From Ruminococcus sp. (GTDB taxonomy: Bacteria; Bacillota; Clostridia; Oscillospirales; Ruminococcaceae): DNA of 64,000 nt. The DNA lies in assembly GCA_017516465.1 (NCBI GenBank), contig JAFXCR010000011.1:2553-66552 (forward strand), read 5' to 3'. A model generated the notes under the pieces. The model worked only from the letters and a program-made list of their open reading frames with translations. It was not told where the DNA came from and did no database searches. Within the stretch, counting starts at the first letter, position 1, and each line of letters begins with the position of its first letter. A program made the translations under genes and the position numbers. Positions 24,788 to 32,707 of this stretch are shown here, in pieces.

Positions 24788-24864
24788 GTCCCAATAGCTC
24801 AGTAGGATAGAGCGGCTGCCTCCTAAGCAGCAGGCCGGAGGTTCGACTCCTCTTTGGGACGCCA
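24788..24864 (+). tRNA. tRNA-Arg (anticodon CCT)
   Basis: 77 nt; acceptor stem gtcccaa/ttgggac, anticodon arm gctgc-ctCCTaa-gcagc, GGTTCGACTCC T-loop, encoded CCA. Confidence 0.97.
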
Positions 24865-24933
24865 AAAAGACGCTTTGGATAAGCTGGATAGTTATATATA
24901 AACTTAAAAATCAGCTTTATTTCAAAGTATATG

Positions 24934-24972
24934 AAAACACCACCGTACTAAGTTGAAGCGGTGGTGTTTTTT
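24934..24972. terminator. Bidirectional terminator between tRNA and lipoprotein gene
   Basis: aaaacaccaccg...cggtggtgtttt. Confidence 0.8.
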
Positions 24973-24993: not shown

Positions 24994-26016
24994 TTATGGA
25001 TTTAATGTAATTGATTCATTTGCGAATTCATCGCTCATAAAATCATCAGCATTATATGCGTGTAATTTGAATTCGATTTCTTCTATTGTTTCAATACCAT
25101 TTTTCTCTAATGTTGTATCAGAGAATGACATGGAGCTGAATGAACATTTTCCAGCTGAAACAGTTTCGGCAAAGAAGGGATCACACATAATATTATTTAC
25201 AGATGCTTCATCAACGCTGAACATTACATCATTGTTTGTTTTATTGATTAAGAAAAGATTAACAGTATAGCCCCATAAATCATCTTCTTCATATCCTGTT
25301 GCAATAGCGGTGATATAATCGTTGTCGATTAATATATTATCAGATGCCTGTGCTTCTCTTACAAATGTTGAAGCTTTTTCTTCGCCGTAAGGATAGACAT
25401 GAACAGTTTCTTCCGCAACCGGATCAGCTAACCAGTCATCATTGTCATAGACGCGGAAGCTGAGTTCAATATCCGTATAATCGCCTATGCCATTTTCATC
25501 AAGTGTATCAGTTGTGAATGAAATTTCTTCATTGCTTTTCTTTCCCGATGCAACTTCTGATGCGAAAAAAGGATCACATTGAACGCCGTTGATTGAAGCA
25601 CTGTCAACGGAAAACATATATGTTTTATCAGAGGATTTGTTTTCAAGCGTAGTCTTGAGACTATATCCCCACAAATTATCAGGGTCAATATCAGTAATTT
25701 TTATTGTACATTCAGCATTGTCGACTGCTATAACTTCTGAAAAAGATATCTTATTGTTTTCTTTTTTGCTTGAGTTGTCTTTTTCCTTGTCCTTTTCTTC
25801 TTTTGAGTCTTCCGAAACGTTGCCATCTTCAGATGAGGTATTTGCATCTGTGCTGTCTTTTTTTTCATCATCTTTCTTTTTGTTGTCCTGAGAATCCTCA
25901 CTTTCTTCATGCGAAGCTTTGGTATCCTTGCTGCTTTTTTCCTTTGATTGTTCAGCACTGCAACCAGTAAGGGATAAAAGCATAAGAGCAAAGAGCAGGG
26001 CAGAGATTTTTTTCAT
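24994..26016 (-). CDS. Lipoprotein 1: lipobox, charged linker and two tandem homologous beta-rich domains
   Basis: MKKISALLFALMLLSLTGC lipobox, GGAGGT RBS; repeated motif LWGY...MFSVD.AS.N...CDPFFA. Confidence 0.88.
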   Translation of the reverse strand: MKKISALLFALMLLSLTGCSAEQSKEKSSKDTKASHEESEDSQDNKKKDDEKKDSTDANTSSEDGNVSEDSKEEKDKEKDNSSKKENNKISFSEVIAVDNAECTIKITDIDPDNLWGYSLKTTLENKSSDKTYMFSVDSASINGVQCDPFFASEVASGKKSNEEISFTTDTLDENGIGDYTDIELSFRVYDNDDWLADPVAEETVHVYPYGEEKASTFVREAQASDNILIDNDYITAIATGYEEDDLWGYTVNLFLINKTNNDVMFSVDEASVNNIMCDPFFAETVSAGKCSFSSMSFSDTTLEKNGIETIEEIEFKLHAYNADDFMSDEFANESITLNP

Positions 26017-26244
26017 TTTTATACCTCCTGTAAATAAAAAAGTGTGTGCAACCGAAGTTACACACACCTAAAACGTAACTCCGATTGTCGCCAAACAAAT
26101 CTTAAATACAAAAGGAATACCTAATTGCAATTCAAGTGGAATTACGTTTTTAACGTATACAAAAGAATTGCAATTATACATGGGTATACCATCCATGTAT
26201 ATCTGAATGACTTACCTCTGCATTAATATTAAGATTTGTTTGAC
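26017..26244 (-). promoter_or_regulatory. Structured ~228-nt 5' leader with terminator before the RBS (attenuator candidate), copy A
   Basis: Hairpin gtgtgtgtaac-TTCG-gttgcacacac followed by TTTTTTATTT, 4 nt before the RBS; several long-range inverted repeats. Confidence 0.65.
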
Positions 26245-26250
26245 AAATCT

Positions 26251-26279
26251 ATTATATCATATTTATAAATGAATTGCAA
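26251..26279 (-). promoter_or_regulatory. sigma-A promoter, copy A
   Basis: TTGCAA-17bp-TATAAT with extended TG. Confidence 0.7.
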
Positions 26280-26438
26280 TTATTTTATGAAAAAATCAGT
26301 TTCAGGTAAATATAATATTGATATAAAAACAGGCGTATTCAATCAAGAGATTATACACGCCTGTCGCTCATTTTTATTAATTACTTATTACTGTCTGAAA
26401 AAAGTGTATGTATGTCGCCGGTATATATGGCGGTTTTG

Positions 26439-26475
26439 TTATATCTGATTGTCTGGGGAGCTTATTGCTTCGACG
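26439..26475 (-). pseudogene. Duplicated 3' end of rmuC (VEAISSPDNQI-stop)
   Basis: Matches 27759-27795 with two substitutions, both synonymous. Confidence 0.85.
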
Positions 26476-26524
26476 ATTCTTTGATTTTATCAGCTTTATG
26501 TTTTTAAGGTGATTTTTTCGTCTG

Positions 26525-26556
26525 CAAAGCCGTCAGGCGGGCTTTGTGGGGTGTTG
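26525..26556. repeat. REP/MITE-like half element
   Basis: caaagccgtcaggcgggctttgtggggtgttg; 29/32 identical to 10325-10356. Confidence 0.6.
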
Positions 26557-26559
26557 ACT

Positions 26560-27339
26560 CTACCAGCCGTACTGCGGATCATCCGGAGGATCCGTTACAG
26601 GTACAGGCGGGATATACTCCTCCGTAGGAAGAGGTGCAGGCGGATCAGTCGCTGGCGGGATAGGAGGAAGAGTTGCAGGCGGATCAGTCGCTGGCGGCAG
26701 GGTAGGAGCCTCTGTCGGAGGAACTGTAACAACAGGAACTGCTGTGGTAGTTTCAACAGGAACGGTAGTAGTAGCCGATGTTGAAACGGGTTCAGTAGTA
26801 GCAACAGCCGAAGTTGTCTGTGAAACAGCCGAAGTTGATGGCATTTCACCGTCCTCAGGAATGTAGTATACAGTCAGCTTTTTGCCTTCCTTGTTGCTGA
26901 AAATGTCACCGGGATAGATTTTCTTGCCCTGAACCTGAAGCTCAATGATAGAATTAGGCTTTCCGTAGTAGCCGTTTGAAGCAATGAACTGGTAGTTAAA
27001 GTCAGAGATTCCGGCTTTTTCAAGACGATTCTTGTATTCAGAAACAGTGCAGTCTGCGAAATCAGGAATCTGTGCTTCTTCCTTACCCTTGCTCTTAACC
27101 TTGATAACAGTCCCCTTTGAGATCATAGTTCCTGCCTCGATGTAATTTTCTTCAGATGAGGTAGCTGAATCTGTACTGTCTTTTTCTTCATCATCTTTCT
27201 TTTTGTTGTCCTGAGAGTCCCCACTTTCTTCATGTGAAACTTTGGTATCCTTGCTGCTTTTTTCCTTTGATTGTTCAGCGCTGCAGCCAGTAAGGAATAA
27301 AAGCGTAAGAGCAAAGAGCAGGGCAGAGATTTTTTTCAT
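26560..27339 (-). CDS. Lipoprotein 2: same N-terminus as lipoprotein 1 fused to a PASTA-like domain and Thr/Pro-rich tail
   Basis: First ~63 aa nearly identical to 24994-26016; KSKGKEEAQIPDFADCTVSEYKNRLEKAGI is PASTA-like; PATDPP repeats. Confidence 0.82.
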   Translation of the reverse strand: MKKISALLFALTLLFLTGCSAEQSKEKSSKDTKVSHEESGDSQDNKKKDDEEKDSTDSATSSEENYIEAGTMISKGTVIKVKSKGKEEAQIPDFADCTVSEYKNRLEKAGISDFNYQFIASNGYYGKPNSIIELQVQGKKIYPGDIFSNKEGKKLTVYYIPEDGEMPSTSAVSQTTSAVATTEPVSTSATTTVPVETTTAVPVVTVPPTEAPTLPPATDPPATLPPIPPATDPPAPLPTEEYIPPVPVTDPPDDPQYGW

Positions 27340-27567
27340 TTTTATACCTCCTGTAAATAAAAAAGTGTGTGGAACCGAAGTTACACACACCTAAAACGTA
27401 ACTCCGATTGTCGCCAAACAAATCATAAATACAAAAGGAATACCTAATTGCAATTCAAGTGGAATTACGTTTTTAACGTATACAAAAGAATTGCAATTAT
27501 ACATGGGTATACCATCCATGTGAATCCGAATGAATACCTCTGTATTAATAATAAAGATTTGTTTGGC
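27340..27567 (-). promoter_or_regulatory. Structured 5' leader with terminator, copy B
   Basis: Only 2 differences from copy A over the ~180 nt nearest the start codon. Confidence 0.65.
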
Positions 27568-27573
27568 AAATTT

Positions 27574-27602
27574 ATTATATCATGCTTATAAATGAAATGC
27601 AA
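27574..27602 (-). promoter_or_regulatory. sigma-A promoter, copy B
   Basis: TTGCAT-17bp-TATAAT with extended TG. Confidence 0.65.
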
Positions 27603-27647
27603 GTATTTTTTCGAAAAATAAGTATCAGGTAAATATAATATTGATAT

Positions 27648-27686
27648 AAAAACAGGCGTATTCAATCAAAAAATTTCATACGCCTG
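27648..27686 (-). terminator. Terminator after rmuC (also present in copy A at about 26326-26364)
   Basis: caggcgta...tacgcctg stem plus T tract on the minus strand. Confidence 0.65.
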
Positions 27687-27758
27687 CTGTTTATTTTTAT
27701 TAATTGCTTTTTATTGTCTGAAAAATATATGTCTGCTGCCGGTATATTGTTGTTTTTA

Positions 27759-28982
27759 TTATATCTGATTGTCGGGGGAGCTTATCGCTTCGACGGAGCT
27801 GAGTTTTCTGTTAATCTGTCTTGTTCGGACTCCCACTAATTTTTCCAGATCATCCTCAGCTTTTTTGAGATGCTTTTGTGTATCTTCAAGTGCTTTCTGA
27901 AAGGTAAGGAATTCTGATTTTACGGCACCGAGTATTTCCCATACCTGACTGCTTTTCTTCTGTATTGCAAGCGTCTGGAATCCCATTTGCAGGGAGTTTA
28001 GCATAGCCGCCATTGTTGAAGGTCCGCAGACGTTGATGTTGTAGTCACGCTGTAAAACTTCTATCATTCCGCTGTTTACGACCTCAGCGTAAAGTCCCTC
28101 GAATGGAAGGAACATAATACCGAAATTCGTGGTATATGGCGGTTCAACGTATTTTTCGTGAATATCCTTTGCACATTTTTTCAGAACTGTGTGGAGATTC
28201 TTTTTTGCTGCTGTTACATCTTCGCTGCTGCCTGATTCATAAGCGTTCTGAAGAGCAGCGTATGTATCTCCGGGGAATTTTGAATCTATGGGCAGATAGA
28301 CGCAGTTTTCACCGTTTCCCGGAAGTCTTACTGCAAATTCTACACGATTCGCACTTTGAGGAATTGTAGCAATATCGCAGTCGTATTGTTCCGGTGCAAG
28401 AATTTCTCTCAGAATAGCACCAAGCTGGATTTCACCGAGAATACCACGATTCTTGACATTTGAAAGTACTTTTTTCAGATCACCGACGCCCGAAGCGATA
28501 TTCTGCATTTCGCCAAGTCCTTTATAGACCTGTTCAAGACGTTCGCCGACAAGTTTGAAGGATTCGTTCATTTTGTTTTCGAGCTTTTCATTTACCGTAG
28601 CCTGTATGGATTCAAGCTTTCTGCTGTTTTCCTCCTGAAGTCCGGTAAGATGTCTTGTCAGGGAGGAACGTATTGCTTCGAGCTTCATTTCGTTGTTGGC
28701 TTCAAGAGTTTTGAAACGGTTTTCGAGAACACTCAGCTGATTTCCGACCGACTCGCCGGAAATTTTCTGTGCCGATGTCAGCATATCACTCATTGCTTTT
28801 ATGCTGTTGTTTATACTTGATGAAACTTCTTCACGAAGCTGTCTGCCGGAATTCTCAGTATCTTTTTTCAGAGCTTCAAGCTGAGGTCTGATATCAGTGG
28901 TGTTTGTTCTTCTGAGTGCAGCGAGGATAAGCAGCATCAGGAAAATAAGAATAATTTCGATAATGAGTAAAACGATATCCAT
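27759..28982 (-). CDS. rmuC: DNA recombination protein RmuC
   Basis: N-terminal TM helix and coiled coil, KNRGILGEIQL, LPIDSKFP, FGIMFLPFEGLY, GPST. Confidence 0.93.
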   Translation of the reverse strand: MDIVLLIIEIILIFLMLLILAALRRTNTTDIRPQLEALKKDTENSGRQLREEVSSSINNSIKAMSDMLTSAQKISGESVGNQLSVLENRFKTLEANNEMKLEAIRSSLTRHLTGLQEENSRKLESIQATVNEKLENKMNESFKLVGERLEQVYKGLGEMQNIASGVGDLKKVLSNVKNRGILGEIQLGAILREILAPEQYDCDIATIPQSANRVEFAVRLPGNGENCVYLPIDSKFPGDTYAALQNAYESGSSEDVTAAKKNLHTVLKKCAKDIHEKYVEPPYTTNFGIMFLPFEGLYAEVVNSGMIEVLQRDYNINVCGPSTMAAMLNSLQMGFQTLAIQKKSSQVWEILGAVKSEFLTFQKALEDTQKHLKKAEDDLEKLVGVRTRQINRKLSSVEAISSPDNQI

Positions 28983-30115: not shown

Positions 30116-32707
30116 TTACCAACCTTGGTCACCGCCGCCGGTATCACCACCGCCGGCTGGAACATCGCCACCGCCGGCTGGAACATCGCCGCCGCCTACT
30201 GGAACATCGCCGCCGCCTGCTGGAACATCGCCGCCGCCGGCTGGAACATCGCCACCGCCGGCTGGAACATCGCCACCGCCGGCTGGAACATCACCGCCGC
30301 CGCTCGGTACGTCGCCGCCGGAAACATCGCCTTCGCCGGTCTGTGTGTTATAGCTTGGTTCTGTGGGTTCCGGAGCCACATAATGACCGCCGTTGCAGTA
30401 CGGAGCATTTGATTCCTTCCAGTAGCCCATCTGCGAACTCTTCGGACATCCCTGTCCTGCGATAAGTCCGGAAGTTGTACACCAAGGCGATTCGATAACA
30501 CCTCTTACAGGATCAAAGTCCGGTTCTGTGTTGAGAAAGTTGTTGTCTGCGTATTCTCCGATGATACTCTTCCATACAGCCGCTGAATGGATGTAAGTAG
30601 GAAGTCCCATACCCTCTCTGTATTCCTTGTAACCGATAGTAACACCGCTTACAAAGTCTCTTGTAAGACCTACGAATGTAAGATCCCACCAGTTTTCGTT
30701 TGTACCTGTCTTACCGCAAACGACCTTGTTATTGAGTTTTGCGTCTGTACCGGTACCCTGATCAACAACGTTTTTGAGAAGTCGGTTCATAACCCATGCG
30801 GTCTGAGCGCTGACAGCCTCACGGGGATTGCCGTTGTTCTCATAAATAACGTCGCCGTTGCTGTTTTCAATTTTTGTGATAATGTGGGCGTCGTTGAAGA
30901 TACCCTCGTTTCCGTACGGCAGATATGCGTTTACCATATCCTGAAGTGTGATACCGTATGTGAGCGAACCTACTGACAGAGGAGGAAGAACCTCACCGTC
31001 CATCGGATCGAGCTCAAGTCCGAGCTGTTCCGTACAGAACTTGTATACAGCCTGCGGAGTAAGCTCCTGACAGAGCTGAGCCGGAACTGTGTTGTATGAT
31101 TTCTGGAGGAAGTAGTAGATAAAGTTTGGCCGACCGGAAATACTGATATCATCACCGGTTGAGTAGTTTGTAGGCCAAGGGATTCCATTTACATCCATGA
31201 CCTTTTTGTCGGTATATACGGAGCTCCAGTGGATGTGATCCTTTTGAAGAGCAAGGCCGTAGGTGGAGATAGGCTTGATAGTAGAACCGATAGAACGCTT
31301 GTCTCTTACAGCGTAGTTAGTTACGAGAGAGTCCTTCTTTTCGCCCCAGTTTCCGACAGTTGCCTTGATTGAGCCGTCGTAATTGAGAGCAACGAAAGCA
31401 ACGTGTGGAAGTGATTCATCGTCAGTTACTGTGCCGTCGCCGTTAAGGTCAACCCATTTTCTTACGCCGTCAGAGGAAAGGAAGTTATCGAGGCTAAGGA
31501 ACTTTTCTTCTACATATTTCTGCATATTATTGTCAATGTAGGAGTAAATTTTGTAGCCGCCAGTGTTGATACGCTTGAGAGCTGTATCGAAGTCGATGTT
31601 CATTTCCTTCATGAAGAAATCTGCTGCTTCAAAGTAGATAGCGTCAAGTGCCCATGAATATGCTTTCTGCTCCTGTTCAAGAGCTTCAGCGGCATCTTCG
31701 GGGTGAGCCTTGAGATATTCTTCGGAGTCTGTATAGATTATCGGAGTATTTAGATATTCCTGATAATCATCATAGCTGATAGCACCGTTTTCGTAGAGCT
31801 TGTACAGAACATATTTCTGACGTGTTTTGTTATTTGCACGGCCATCGCTAATCAGAGGACTTTTCAGATTAAGATCATCCTCGTGATAGTACTGCATAGG
31901 TCCGTATTTTTCAGGATCTTTAGGTATAGCCGCAAGAACAGCCGCTTCTGGAGTACTTATCTGATCAACGGTCTTTCCGAAATATCGGATACAGGCGAGT
32001 TCAATACCGTTGACAGCACCACCGAAGCCGATGTAGTTCAGGTATTCTTCGAGAATTTCGTCCTTGGAATACGTTTTTTCCAGCTGCATAGCGGCGAAGA
32101 TTTCACGTATCTTACGCTGAGGAGACTGCTCATTGTCACCGGTAAGGTTTTTGATAAGCTGCTGGGTAATTGTAGATCCGCCCTGATTTGTATCATAGAA
32201 GTGCATGAACATATTCAGGAAGGCAGAGAATGTTCGTTTGTAGTCAACACCGTCGTGAACGTAGAAACGTTCGTCCTCAGTGTAAACGAAAGCGTCCCTG
32301 ACGTGCTGCGGTATTTTGTCGATAGAAACGGGGATACGCTGTACAGAAGATTTGACTCTGTGCAGCTGTACGATTTTTTCTTCACCGTTTTCATCGAATT
32401 CAGTACCGTAGAAGTAGGTATCACTTCCTGATTCGAGAGCCTGAAATGTAATGCTGCTGCTTTCGTCCATGAAGTCAAGAACATAGACGGTAAGTGCCGT
32501 TGCAACGATAGTTCCCGTAATAATCATAACAAGGAACAGTGAAAGCAGGGTTGTTGCGATAACAGCAATAATCTTCTTGAAGATTCTGAAGGGAAGACTG
32601 TGTTTTTTCTTCTTCTTTTTCTTATTTGGCGGCGGTGATTGTCTTGCCGGCATTGGTTCAGCGAATCCTGTCTTAGGCTGCTGAGGTGTGAAATTATTAT
32701 CGTTCAT
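30116..32707 (-). CDS. Class A penicillin-binding protein (PBP1A) with Gly-rich repeat tail; start uncertain (open frame extends to 32800)
   Basis: GT51 motifs EDERF and GGSTITQQLIKN; transpeptidase motifs STIK, SYN, KTGT. Confidence 0.9.
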   Translation of the reverse strand: MNDNNFTPQQPKTGFAEPMPARQSPPPNKKKKKKKHSLPFRIFKKIIAVIATTLLSLFLVMIITGTIVATALTVYVLDFMDESSSITFQALESGSDTYFYGTEFDENGEEKIVQLHRVKSSVQRIPVSIDKIPQHVRDAFVYTEDERFYVHDGVDYKRTFSAFLNMFMHFYDTNQGGSTITQQLIKNLTGDNEQSPQRKIREIFAAMQLEKTYSKDEILEEYLNYIGFGGAVNGIELACIRYFGKTVDQISTPEAAVLAAIPKDPEKYGPMQYYHEDDLNLKSPLISDGRANNKTRQKYVLYKLYENGAISYDDYQEYLNTPIIYTDSEEYLKAHPEDAAEALEQEQKAYSWALDAIYFEAADFFMKEMNIDFDTALKRINTGGYKIYSYIDNNMQKYVEEKFLSLDNFLSSDGVRKWVDLNGDGTVTDDESLPHVAFVALNYDGSIKATVGNWGEKKDSLVTNYAVRDKRSIGSTIKPISTYGLALQKDHIHWSSVYTDKKVMDVNGIPWPTNYSTGDDISISGRPNFIYYFLQKSYNTVPAQLCQELTPQAVYKFCTEQLGLELDPMDGEVLPPLSVGSLTYGITLQDMVNAYLPYGNEGIFNDAHIITKIENSNGDVIYENNGNPREAVSAQTAWVMNRLLKNVVDQGTGTDAKLNNKVVCGKTGTNENWWDLTFVGLTRDFVSGVTIGYKEYREGMGLPTYIHSAAVWKSIIGEYADNNFLNTEPDFDPVRGVIESPWCTTSGLIAGQGCPKSSQMGYWKESNAPYCNGGHYVAPEPTEPSYNTQTGEGDVSGGDVPSGGGDVPAGGGDVPAGGGDVPAGGGDVPAGGGDVPVGGGDVPAGGGDVPAGGGDTGGGDQGW
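30130..30325. repeat. 21-bp coding tandem repeat (GGGDVPA, about 8 copies) in the PBP1A tail
   Basis: Unit ccgccggctggaacatcgcca repeated head to tail with no spacers. Confidence 0.95.

Follow-up and report, generated by a model that had tools for sequence, protein, structure and literature searches.

A lipoprotein islet between rmuC and tRNA-Arg(CCT) in Ruminococcus, probably acquired horizontally and remodelled by recombination

A metagenome-assembled genome (MAG) of Ruminococcus sp. (GenBank assembly GCA_017516465.1) carries two tandem lipoprotein genes, here named A and B, in the spacer between rmuC and a tRNA-Arg(CCT) gene. We analysed the 64,000-nucleotide (nt) stretch that contains them (contig JAFXCR010000011.1, positions 2,553 to 66,552; hereafter the window). 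The pair probably forms a horizontally acquired islet that was remodelled by ordinary homologous and illegitimate recombination among sibling species. B is a chimera in which the tail of a Ser/Thr kinase follows the N-terminus of an A-type lipoprotein. The locus thereby offers a clean example of how a bacterium can obtain a new exported protein, with an existing promoter, leader, signal peptide and linker being reused and a housekeeping sensor-kinase domain spliced behind them. This would be gene birth by ordinary recombination, in which the stump of the replaced gene and the ancestral junction can still be read and intermediate alleles are found in sibling genomes.

Two repeats and a chimeric lipoprotein gene

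Each lipoprotein gene begins within one of two direct repeats, R_A (25826-26475, 650 bp) and R_B (27149-27795, 647 bp), which are spaced 1323 bp apart and are 91% identical (repeat search, BLAST); the 1.99-Mb assembly holds just these two copies. On the minus strand, the order in each repeat is an rmuC end, a decayed hairpin, a stem-loop with a T-run (27689-27648 and 26364-26325), an extended -10 promoter (TTGCAt/TTGCAA-17-TGnTATAAT; 27602-27574 and 26279-26251), a leader of 216 nt that ends in a cUUCGg-looped terminator 4 nt ahead of GGAGG, the Shine–Dalgarno (SD) sequence, and 63 shared codons that include an LTGC lipobox. The shared N-terminus, MKKISALLFAL.LL.LTGC, reads as a signal peptide and lipobox (L-[AST]-[GA]-C criterion), and Pfam LPAM_1 matches are weak (E=0.06 and 0.5). 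Homology stops immediately past the residues TSSE. The original prediction, which was made from the DNA letters alone, had described such a pair of direct repeats, comprising an rmuC end, a terminator, a promoter, a leader and about 63 codons, as one export and regulatory module ahead of two unrelated payloads; reading and aligning both copies bore this out, as well as the contrast between an AT-rich and a GC-richer payload (GC content: payload A 35%, B segment 47.5%, repeats 33%, window 41%).

Features of the locus, in the order of transcription from rmuC towards the tRNA gene:

27759..28982, minus strand: rmuC, 407 aa (Pfam RmuC, PF02646, E=3.2e-66, 224 bits)
27759-27794, minus: rmuC end e, the last 11 codons and stop, which opens R_B (sequence coordinates)
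27149..27795, minus: repeat R_B (repeat search and BLAST)
27733-27754, minus: decayed hairpin of R_B
27648-27689, minus: rmuC terminator, in R_B
27574-27602, minus: promoter of R_B
27357-27572, minus: leader of R_B
27337-27352, minus: SD and ATG of B, followed by the 63 N-terminal B codons
27283-27285, minus: lipobox Cys of B
26560..27339, minus: lipoprotein B, 259 aa, chimera
26476..26559, minus: B 3' flank, which resembles the A' gene end of locus L023; the same flank is in L028
26525-26546, minus: hairpin without T-run, in the B 3' flank
26496-26519, minus: remnant of an A'-type gene, in the B 3' flank
26477-26495, minus: A'-type 3' untranslated region (UTR), 19 nt, in the B 3' flank
26439..26474, minus: e', extra copy of the last 11 rmuC codons and stop
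25826..26475, minus: repeat R_A, which holds e' and the 63 N-terminal A codons
26414-26433, minus: hairpin remnant of R_A
26325-26364, minus: terminator in R_A
26251-26279, minus: promoter of R_A
26034-26249, minus: leader of R_A
26014-26029, minus: SD and ATG of A
26034..26249 and 27357-27572, minus: structured leader RNA, two copies (fold z-score, covariation)
26233-26247 with 26090-26101: leader helix P1
26138-26150 with 26070-26082: leader pseudoknot helix B-B'
26036-26068: leader terminator
24994..26016, minus: lipoprotein A, 340 aa
24865..24993, minus: A 3' UTR with its own terminator at 24934-24966, common to loci L024 and L025
24788..24864, plus: tRNA-Arg(CCT), convergent with rmuC (ARAGORN; Rfam 68 bits)

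The first 63 codons of B are the A-type N-terminus; from 27143 downwards, right past TSSE and as far as the stop codon, the DNA is homologous to the 3' end of a PASTA Ser/Thr kinase gene. The kinase on contig C50 of the same genome (675 aa; Pkinase at 105-269, PASTA at 453-513 with E=8.5e-8; best NCBIfam match a Stk1-family PASTA kinase) aligns over residues ~495-675 with payload residues 2-195 at 83% amino-acid identity. At the 5' joint, which falls within the PASTA repeat near kinase residue 495, there is a short microhomology, ATCT(T)TGAA; B itself gives no PASTA match (PF03793) at E<=5. The payload opens with the C-terminal part of a PASTA repeat and continues through a second PASTA-like domain into a Pro/Thr-rich tail; the homologue P0125 has two PASTA stretches. 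The B payloads group with the kinase of their own species (92-94% nt identity) and not with that of G013, one of the three nearest species without the lipoproteins (83%). The donor kinase (G000:C50:9347-10036; L082:25-2052) begins with a zinc-ribbon-like CxxC...C motif, followed by a kinase domain with a weak score and a single clear PASTA repeat; behind these come another, PASTA-like domain and a Pro/Thr tail that ends in GEW.

On the other side of B, past its stop codon and a hairpin, lie the last 8 codons and stop of an A'-type gene (22/24 nt identical to the gene end in L023), a UTR of 16-19 nt and e'. The kinase fragment therefore replaced the body of an A'-type gene in situ. B has a single origin, in an illegitimate recombination event with the kinase gene. 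Over 102 domain codons, B and the kinase differ at 19 synonymous sites and 1 non-synonymous site (dS 0.40, dN 0.004, dN/dS 0.01), a pattern that shows constraint in at least one lineage.

Compared with PASTA kinases such as PrkC, StkP and PknB, B shares the extracellular C-terminal ~196 residues of its own genome's kinase, but it has neither a kinase domain nor a transmembrane helix and is lipid-anchored through a foreign signal peptide. Since it begins inside the PASTA repeat, it retains that repeat only in part, along with the domain behind it and the Pro/Thr tail. B would be a lipid-anchored, exported copy of the kinase extracellular tail, and it may bind, or compete for, whatever the outer domain of the kinase binds; that it acts as a decoy or modulator of the kinase is a guess.

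Lipoprotein A consists of the signal peptide and lipobox, a disordered acidic linker of ~85 residues and two beta-sandwich domains (~90-210 and ~225-340), modelled by AlphaFold2 (AF2) with a predicted local distance difference test score (pLDDT) of >90. The nearest folds in Foldseek are Enterococcus WxLIP and Vibrio RbmA (E~1e-5, low TM-score), and searches of Pfam and NCBIfam gave no family beyond lipoprotein-signal noise. A is probably a surface protein with tandem Ig-like domains, and it has 939 homologues in public data, in other genomic contexts. Sliding-window identity shows that positions 25988-25270 are 90-98% identical to L023, and positions 25150-24850, through the UTR, are 93-98% identical to L024; gene A is a mosaic of two sibling-species alleles.

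Arrangements in relatives and the order of events

The nearest species without a lipoprotein gene at this site (G013, G129 and G133; RmuC 93, 86 and 84% identical) have the rmuC stop, one hairpin within 60-90 nt, the convergent tRNA-Arg(CCT) gene and yfhO. None of the five nearest species yielded the A payload, and among 60 relatives the A family gives remote matches only (<=38% identity). Because the sister species are without the lipoprotein and the unit has 33-35% GC compared with 41% in the window, we read the A unit as an acquired insertion. Spacer content varies across the genus, since a more distant relative, G067, holds a ComF-like gene (double zinc ribbon and phosphoribosyltransferase) between rmuC and tRNA-Arg (L064 1199-1942). 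The predicted variation in close relatives was likewise found, with spacers that hold no lipoprotein gene, A only, B only, or B and A. The occupied loci, besides the window, are as follows:

L024 (GCA_045587105.1): A only between rmuC and tRNA; flank identity to the window ~91-93%
L028 (GCA_045592205.1): B only; flank identity 97.2% / 99.5%
L026 (a separate assembly): B and A; 99.83% identity over 13 kb
L023 (Logan SRR24653634): an A variant, A'; flank identity ~90%; the contig ends in the leader

Apart from L026, exact look-ups of the window RmuC and YfhO proteins returned only short Logan contigs, broken off inside the repeats. Contigs with rmuC and B from two more samples end 38-46 nt inside R_A (window positions 26437 and 26429), and in one of these samples a second contig begins 8 nt ahead of R_A and continues into A, such that the two contigs (L097 and L027) overlap across the B-to-A joint. 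The contigs end where the B-only and B+A haplotypes diverge, which hints that both haplotypes coexist in the two samples.

Counted with the 10 nt that follow it, the extra rmuC end e' repeats the true rmuC end directly over 48 nt; it sits at the joint between units B and A, in line with the proposal that an rmuC 3' end copy serves as the recombination joint. The 48-nt copy is identical in L028 and matches at 47/48 positions in L023; in both loci the order is lipoprotein gene, 16 nt, e', intact hairpin and tRNA-Arg. As predicted, e and e' differ only at GCG/GCA and CCC/CCA, both synonymous. The prediction had taken this as a sign of import from the functional rmuC of a relative, a claim that found no support: two synonymous changes are too few to carry it, and the e'-hairpin-tRNA block of L028 and L023 aligns with the rmuC-end/hairpin/tRNA region of G013 (score 68). 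Because the block is orthologous to the G013 junction, e' is better read as the old rmuC/tRNA junction, which stayed where it was when the unit came in upstream of it; the present end of rmuC is a second copy. What lies behind e' in the window is R_A and not the intact hairpin. L028 keeps the hairpin that the window lacks and is therefore not a deletion product of the window arrangement; the reverse derivation, of the window arrangement from a B-only allele, is possible.

We propose the following history. The starting point, still seen in the sister species, was an rmuC stop, a bidirectional terminator hairpin and tRNA-Arg. A self-contained AT-rich unit (promoter, pseudoknotted leader with terminator, SD and the A gene) would then have been inserted, and type II alleles (L023 and L028), with the 48-nt e' and an intact hairpin downstream, have the unit flanked by direct repeats; the inserted state itself is seen in these genomes, and only its mechanism is inferred. 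In a type II allele, the A' body from codon 64 to 8 codons before the stop was replaced by the last ~196 codons of a PASTA kinase gene of the same species group, which placed the product, B, under the promoter, leader and signal peptide of A. Finally, an A unit may have come to lie behind B through recombination whose left joint was at e'/e and whose right joint was in tRNA/yfhO, with the 3' third of A and its UTR coming from an L024-like allele. A duplicated gene end of 48 nt would be enough for such tandem stacking of alleles. Each gene would be transcribed from its own promoter copy, gated by the leader terminator.

Several points weigh against this history. The route of the first e' duplication has rival candidates, namely integration by a recombinase that has since disappeared and, alternatively, one-sided homologous plus illegitimate recombination into the empty site. 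The L023 contig ends in the leader, and the upstream side of that allele lies beyond it. The RmuC tail of L024 is different and resembles that of G013, and therefore at least one further recombination must be assumed. The dS of 0.40 could reflect an old capture or a donor in a sibling species, and selection on B itself is not taken as proven. The five loci fit either order of events, B first and A later or duplication first, and cannot settle it.

If duplication came first, a type II allele would have gained two A' units by unequal crossover of e with e', and the kinase fragment would have replaced the upstream, redundant copy; L028 would later have lost its second unit when e' recombined with e'', a third rmuC end, and an L024-like allele would have supplied the 3' end and UTR of the window A. 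This account has the same core as the history favoured here and differs only in the order of events; we hold it to be a possibility with less than even chances. It predicts what is found in the window A, which is L023-like over its first three quarters and L024-like only at the 3' end and UTR; a 48-nt direct repeat that flanks one unit exists in L028 and L023, and no stage without A is needed. On the other side, no genome with two A units or e'' was seen. A decayed e'' in the A 3' UTR was considered and dropped on a shuffle test, in which local alignments for a third rmuC end behind A were no better than shuffles (p=0.23 and 0.56). In the type I allele (A only; also the 3' side of the window A), the UTR measures 125 nt and includes a terminator of its own, and no second repeat reaches significance. 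The final ~20 nt of the A 3' UTR (24862-24882) resemble the right arm of the ancestral hairpin beside the tRNA.

The repeats themselves also bear on the order. Their identity is uneven: the promoter-proximal 5' 250 nt are 86% identical, and the last ~180 nt of the leader hold 2 differences. The rmuC-proximal 250 nt occur as two haplotypes at the same position in different strains, with the R_A type adjoining rmuC in L028 and the R_B type in the window and in a metagenomic contig, L029. At 86%, compared with 97-99.8% between strains, the 5' parts of R_A and R_B look like alleles of different lineages, which argues against a recent duplication in place. Because the copies differ by 14% in this part, far above strain divergence, B first is slightly favoured; the mosaic A fits duplication first well, and we cannot decide between the two.

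L029 (ENA ERZ1767513 NODE_1416, 3.5x coverage) runs from rmuC and the B N-terminus into the kinase gene's own 3' end, its terminator and its downstream genes (Spo0A_C-like, ABC ATPase). We rejected it as a fourth arrangement: its 3' half is the kinase locus, and, given this coverage, assembly most likely produced a chimera by way of the ~95% identical payload. The window could be suspected of a similar origin, with the haplotypes of two strains from a mixed sample, one with B and one with A, chained through the shared repeat, given that the genome is a MAG, that B-only and A-only alleles both occur in nature and that L029 looks like such a chimera. Yet the B-to-A joint has sequence of its own (the A' remnant, 19 nt, e' and R_A), which is present in L026 at 99.83%, and the repeats are only 91% identical. 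As L026 has the same B+A order and the overlapping contigs of a third sample (L097 and L027) also span the joint, we regard an artefact as hardly credible.

Ordinary recombination or a cassette system

The original prediction had gone further and proposed an antigen-diversification hotspot with exchangeable payloads. A search with A residues 1-66 against 5.8 billion proteins gave five clusters (A, A' and three B alleles) that carry two payloads only, and no integrase, invertase or other recombinase is present among the neighbouring genes within ~10 kb on either side, nor is there an att-like array nearby. Scans for the rmuC-end motif in Joint Genome Institute (JGI) metagenomes and Genome Taxonomy Database (GTDB) species genomes returned 11 matches, all of them chance, and no further copies of the site. 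With just two payloads behind this N-terminus, no recombinase nearby and B a one-off, the hotspot found no support; the cassette and hotspot proposal holds only in part, and the locus is not a many-cassette system. We see it instead as a polymorphic islet shaped by recombination rather than a programmed cassette system, in which excision or amplification through the 650-bp repeats is plausible.

A dedicated system might still act from elsewhere, with the 48-nt rmuC-end repeat as an att-like site for a recombinase encoded at a distance that swaps 1.3-kb units to vary the surface. The units are indeed bounded by direct repeats of a gene 3' end beside a tRNA gene, as in integrative elements; e' is 47/48 identical across lineages with flanks that differ by 10%; and the contig breaks in two samples fall no more than 8 nt from the place at which B-only and B+A diverge, a hint of coexisting variants. 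We judge this explanation very unlikely in view of the neighbourhood without an integrase or invertase, the two payloads and the chance matches described above, and also in view of the B joints, which are illegitimate, lie inside coding sequence and leave a remnant of the replaced gene, and of the type I A-only allele without a second repeat.

Comparison with known systems gave a mixed picture. In Mycoplasma, the variable lipoprotein gene families vlp, vsp and vsa are tandem genes that start with a highly conserved block of promoter, 5' UTR, signal peptide and lipobox and diverge in their mature parts, and recombination within these clusters makes chimeras. The plan of a conserved 5' block with a divergent body, and the formation of chimeras, are the same here. 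Unlike in Mycoplasma, there are two genes only, each with a complete promoter and leader, no phase-variation device is present, neither a homopolymer tract in the promoter nor vis/vrs sites with a recombinase, and one payload is a domain captured from a kinase, not a repeat-variable antigen.

Islets bounded by attL and attR at the 3' ends of tRNA or protein genes share with this locus an AT-rich foreign unit beside a tRNA gene and, in the type II alleles, a flanking 48-nt direct repeat that reconstitutes the target 3' end; such a target 3'-end repeat is present in L028, and as e/e' in the window. They differ in that here no integrase is found in the unit or within ~10 kb, the unit is only ~1.4 kb and the type I A-only allele has no second repeat; the 48-nt repeat may equally stem from one-sided homologous and illegitimate recombination as from attL/attR integration. 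Integron gene cassettes resemble the locus in the promoter-proximal stacking of unrelated small genes at one site, but here there is no intI or attI nearby and no attC inverted repeat, the units are bounded by the direct rmuC-end repeat and have their own promoters, and the constant part reaches into coding sequence. As for shufflons and other inversion systems, repeats of significant length are direct only, and no invertase is present.

A widespread leader RNA and the neighbouring genes

The leader is not confined to this locus. A covariance model built from 12 copies (and without helix B-B') gave matches in 27 of 141 genomes and in 19 of 49 genera of the order, with up to 6 copies per genome (homologues L098 and L110-L138). 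The homologues always have a terminator and SD on their 3' side, followed by very diverse open reading frames (ORFs); their distance to the start codon is mostly ~12-35 nt and reaches 88 nt. The genes behind them encode lipoproteins and secreted, membrane and cytoplasmic proteins, one of which is another member of the A family. In general, then, the constant module is promoter, leader and SD, and the 63-codon extension is limited to this locus, where the module reaches into the gene because B was cut out of A'. One homologue, L138 (G048:C8:61296-61671), has two tandem leader copies ~216 nt apart, the downstream one ahead of a 54-aa ORF.

Among 33 sequences, the closing helix P1 has 12 pairs, 9 of which show compensatory changes, and the long-range helix B-B', which crosses P1, has 15 pairs, 9 of them compensatory (93.5% paired). 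Covariation in both helices exceeds all 500 shuffles and all slid controls, and the fold z-score of the leader is -8.0. Rfam 15 gave no match at E<=1 on the window or on ten homologous leader loci, and a literature search with leader core sequences returned only an unrelated primer. These comparisons point to a widespread, pseudoknotted structured RNA that is absent from Rfam. With a length of ~215 nt, a closing helix P1, a covarying long-range helix, conservation across many genera and an intrinsic terminator that ends ~10 nt (7-12) before the SD, it resembles the 5' leaders of riboswitches and attenuators, but it differs from them in having no Rfam match, extremely diverse downstream genes and no obvious antiterminator that competes with the terminator. 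Its occurrence ahead of lipoprotein and other accessory genes makes it a good riboswitch or antitermination target in gut Clostridia that are not yet culturable. A bolder and tentative reading, which we think could be right although the chances are against it, is that the leader is a new class of ligand- or protein-sensing cis-regulatory RNA, which with promoter and SD forms a portable platform ahead of diverse accessory and surface genes across the clostridial order; the window would then show a payload being recruited, with B serving as a secreted decoy for, or modulator of, the kinase sensor domain.

Gene products in the neighbourhood include GlgB, a class A penicillin-binding protein (PBP), RlmL, RmuC, YfhO, a NUDIX protein, a Mur ligase, LexA and ZapA, with the YfhO-family gene lying beyond tRNA-Arg(CCT). 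In G133, and in that species only, ~150 extra nt with a ~19-nt terminal inverted repeat lie between the yfhO promoter and SD (L063), a segment that looks like a miniature inverted-repeat transposable element. The C-terminus of the class A PBP (30116-30420, minus strand) is a run of GGGDVPA/GGGDVS repeats, the DNA of which matches itself at 81-85%, and the protein varies between 818 and 894 aa in relatives. The final ~12 residues of RmuC are wholly different between sibling species (ISSPDNQI, IETSIDDEQ and MNIPLCNESEE; window 27759-27800, L024 and L061-L063), and the window-type tail derives from a deletion of ~27 nt, by which the reading frame runs into the former 3' UTR.

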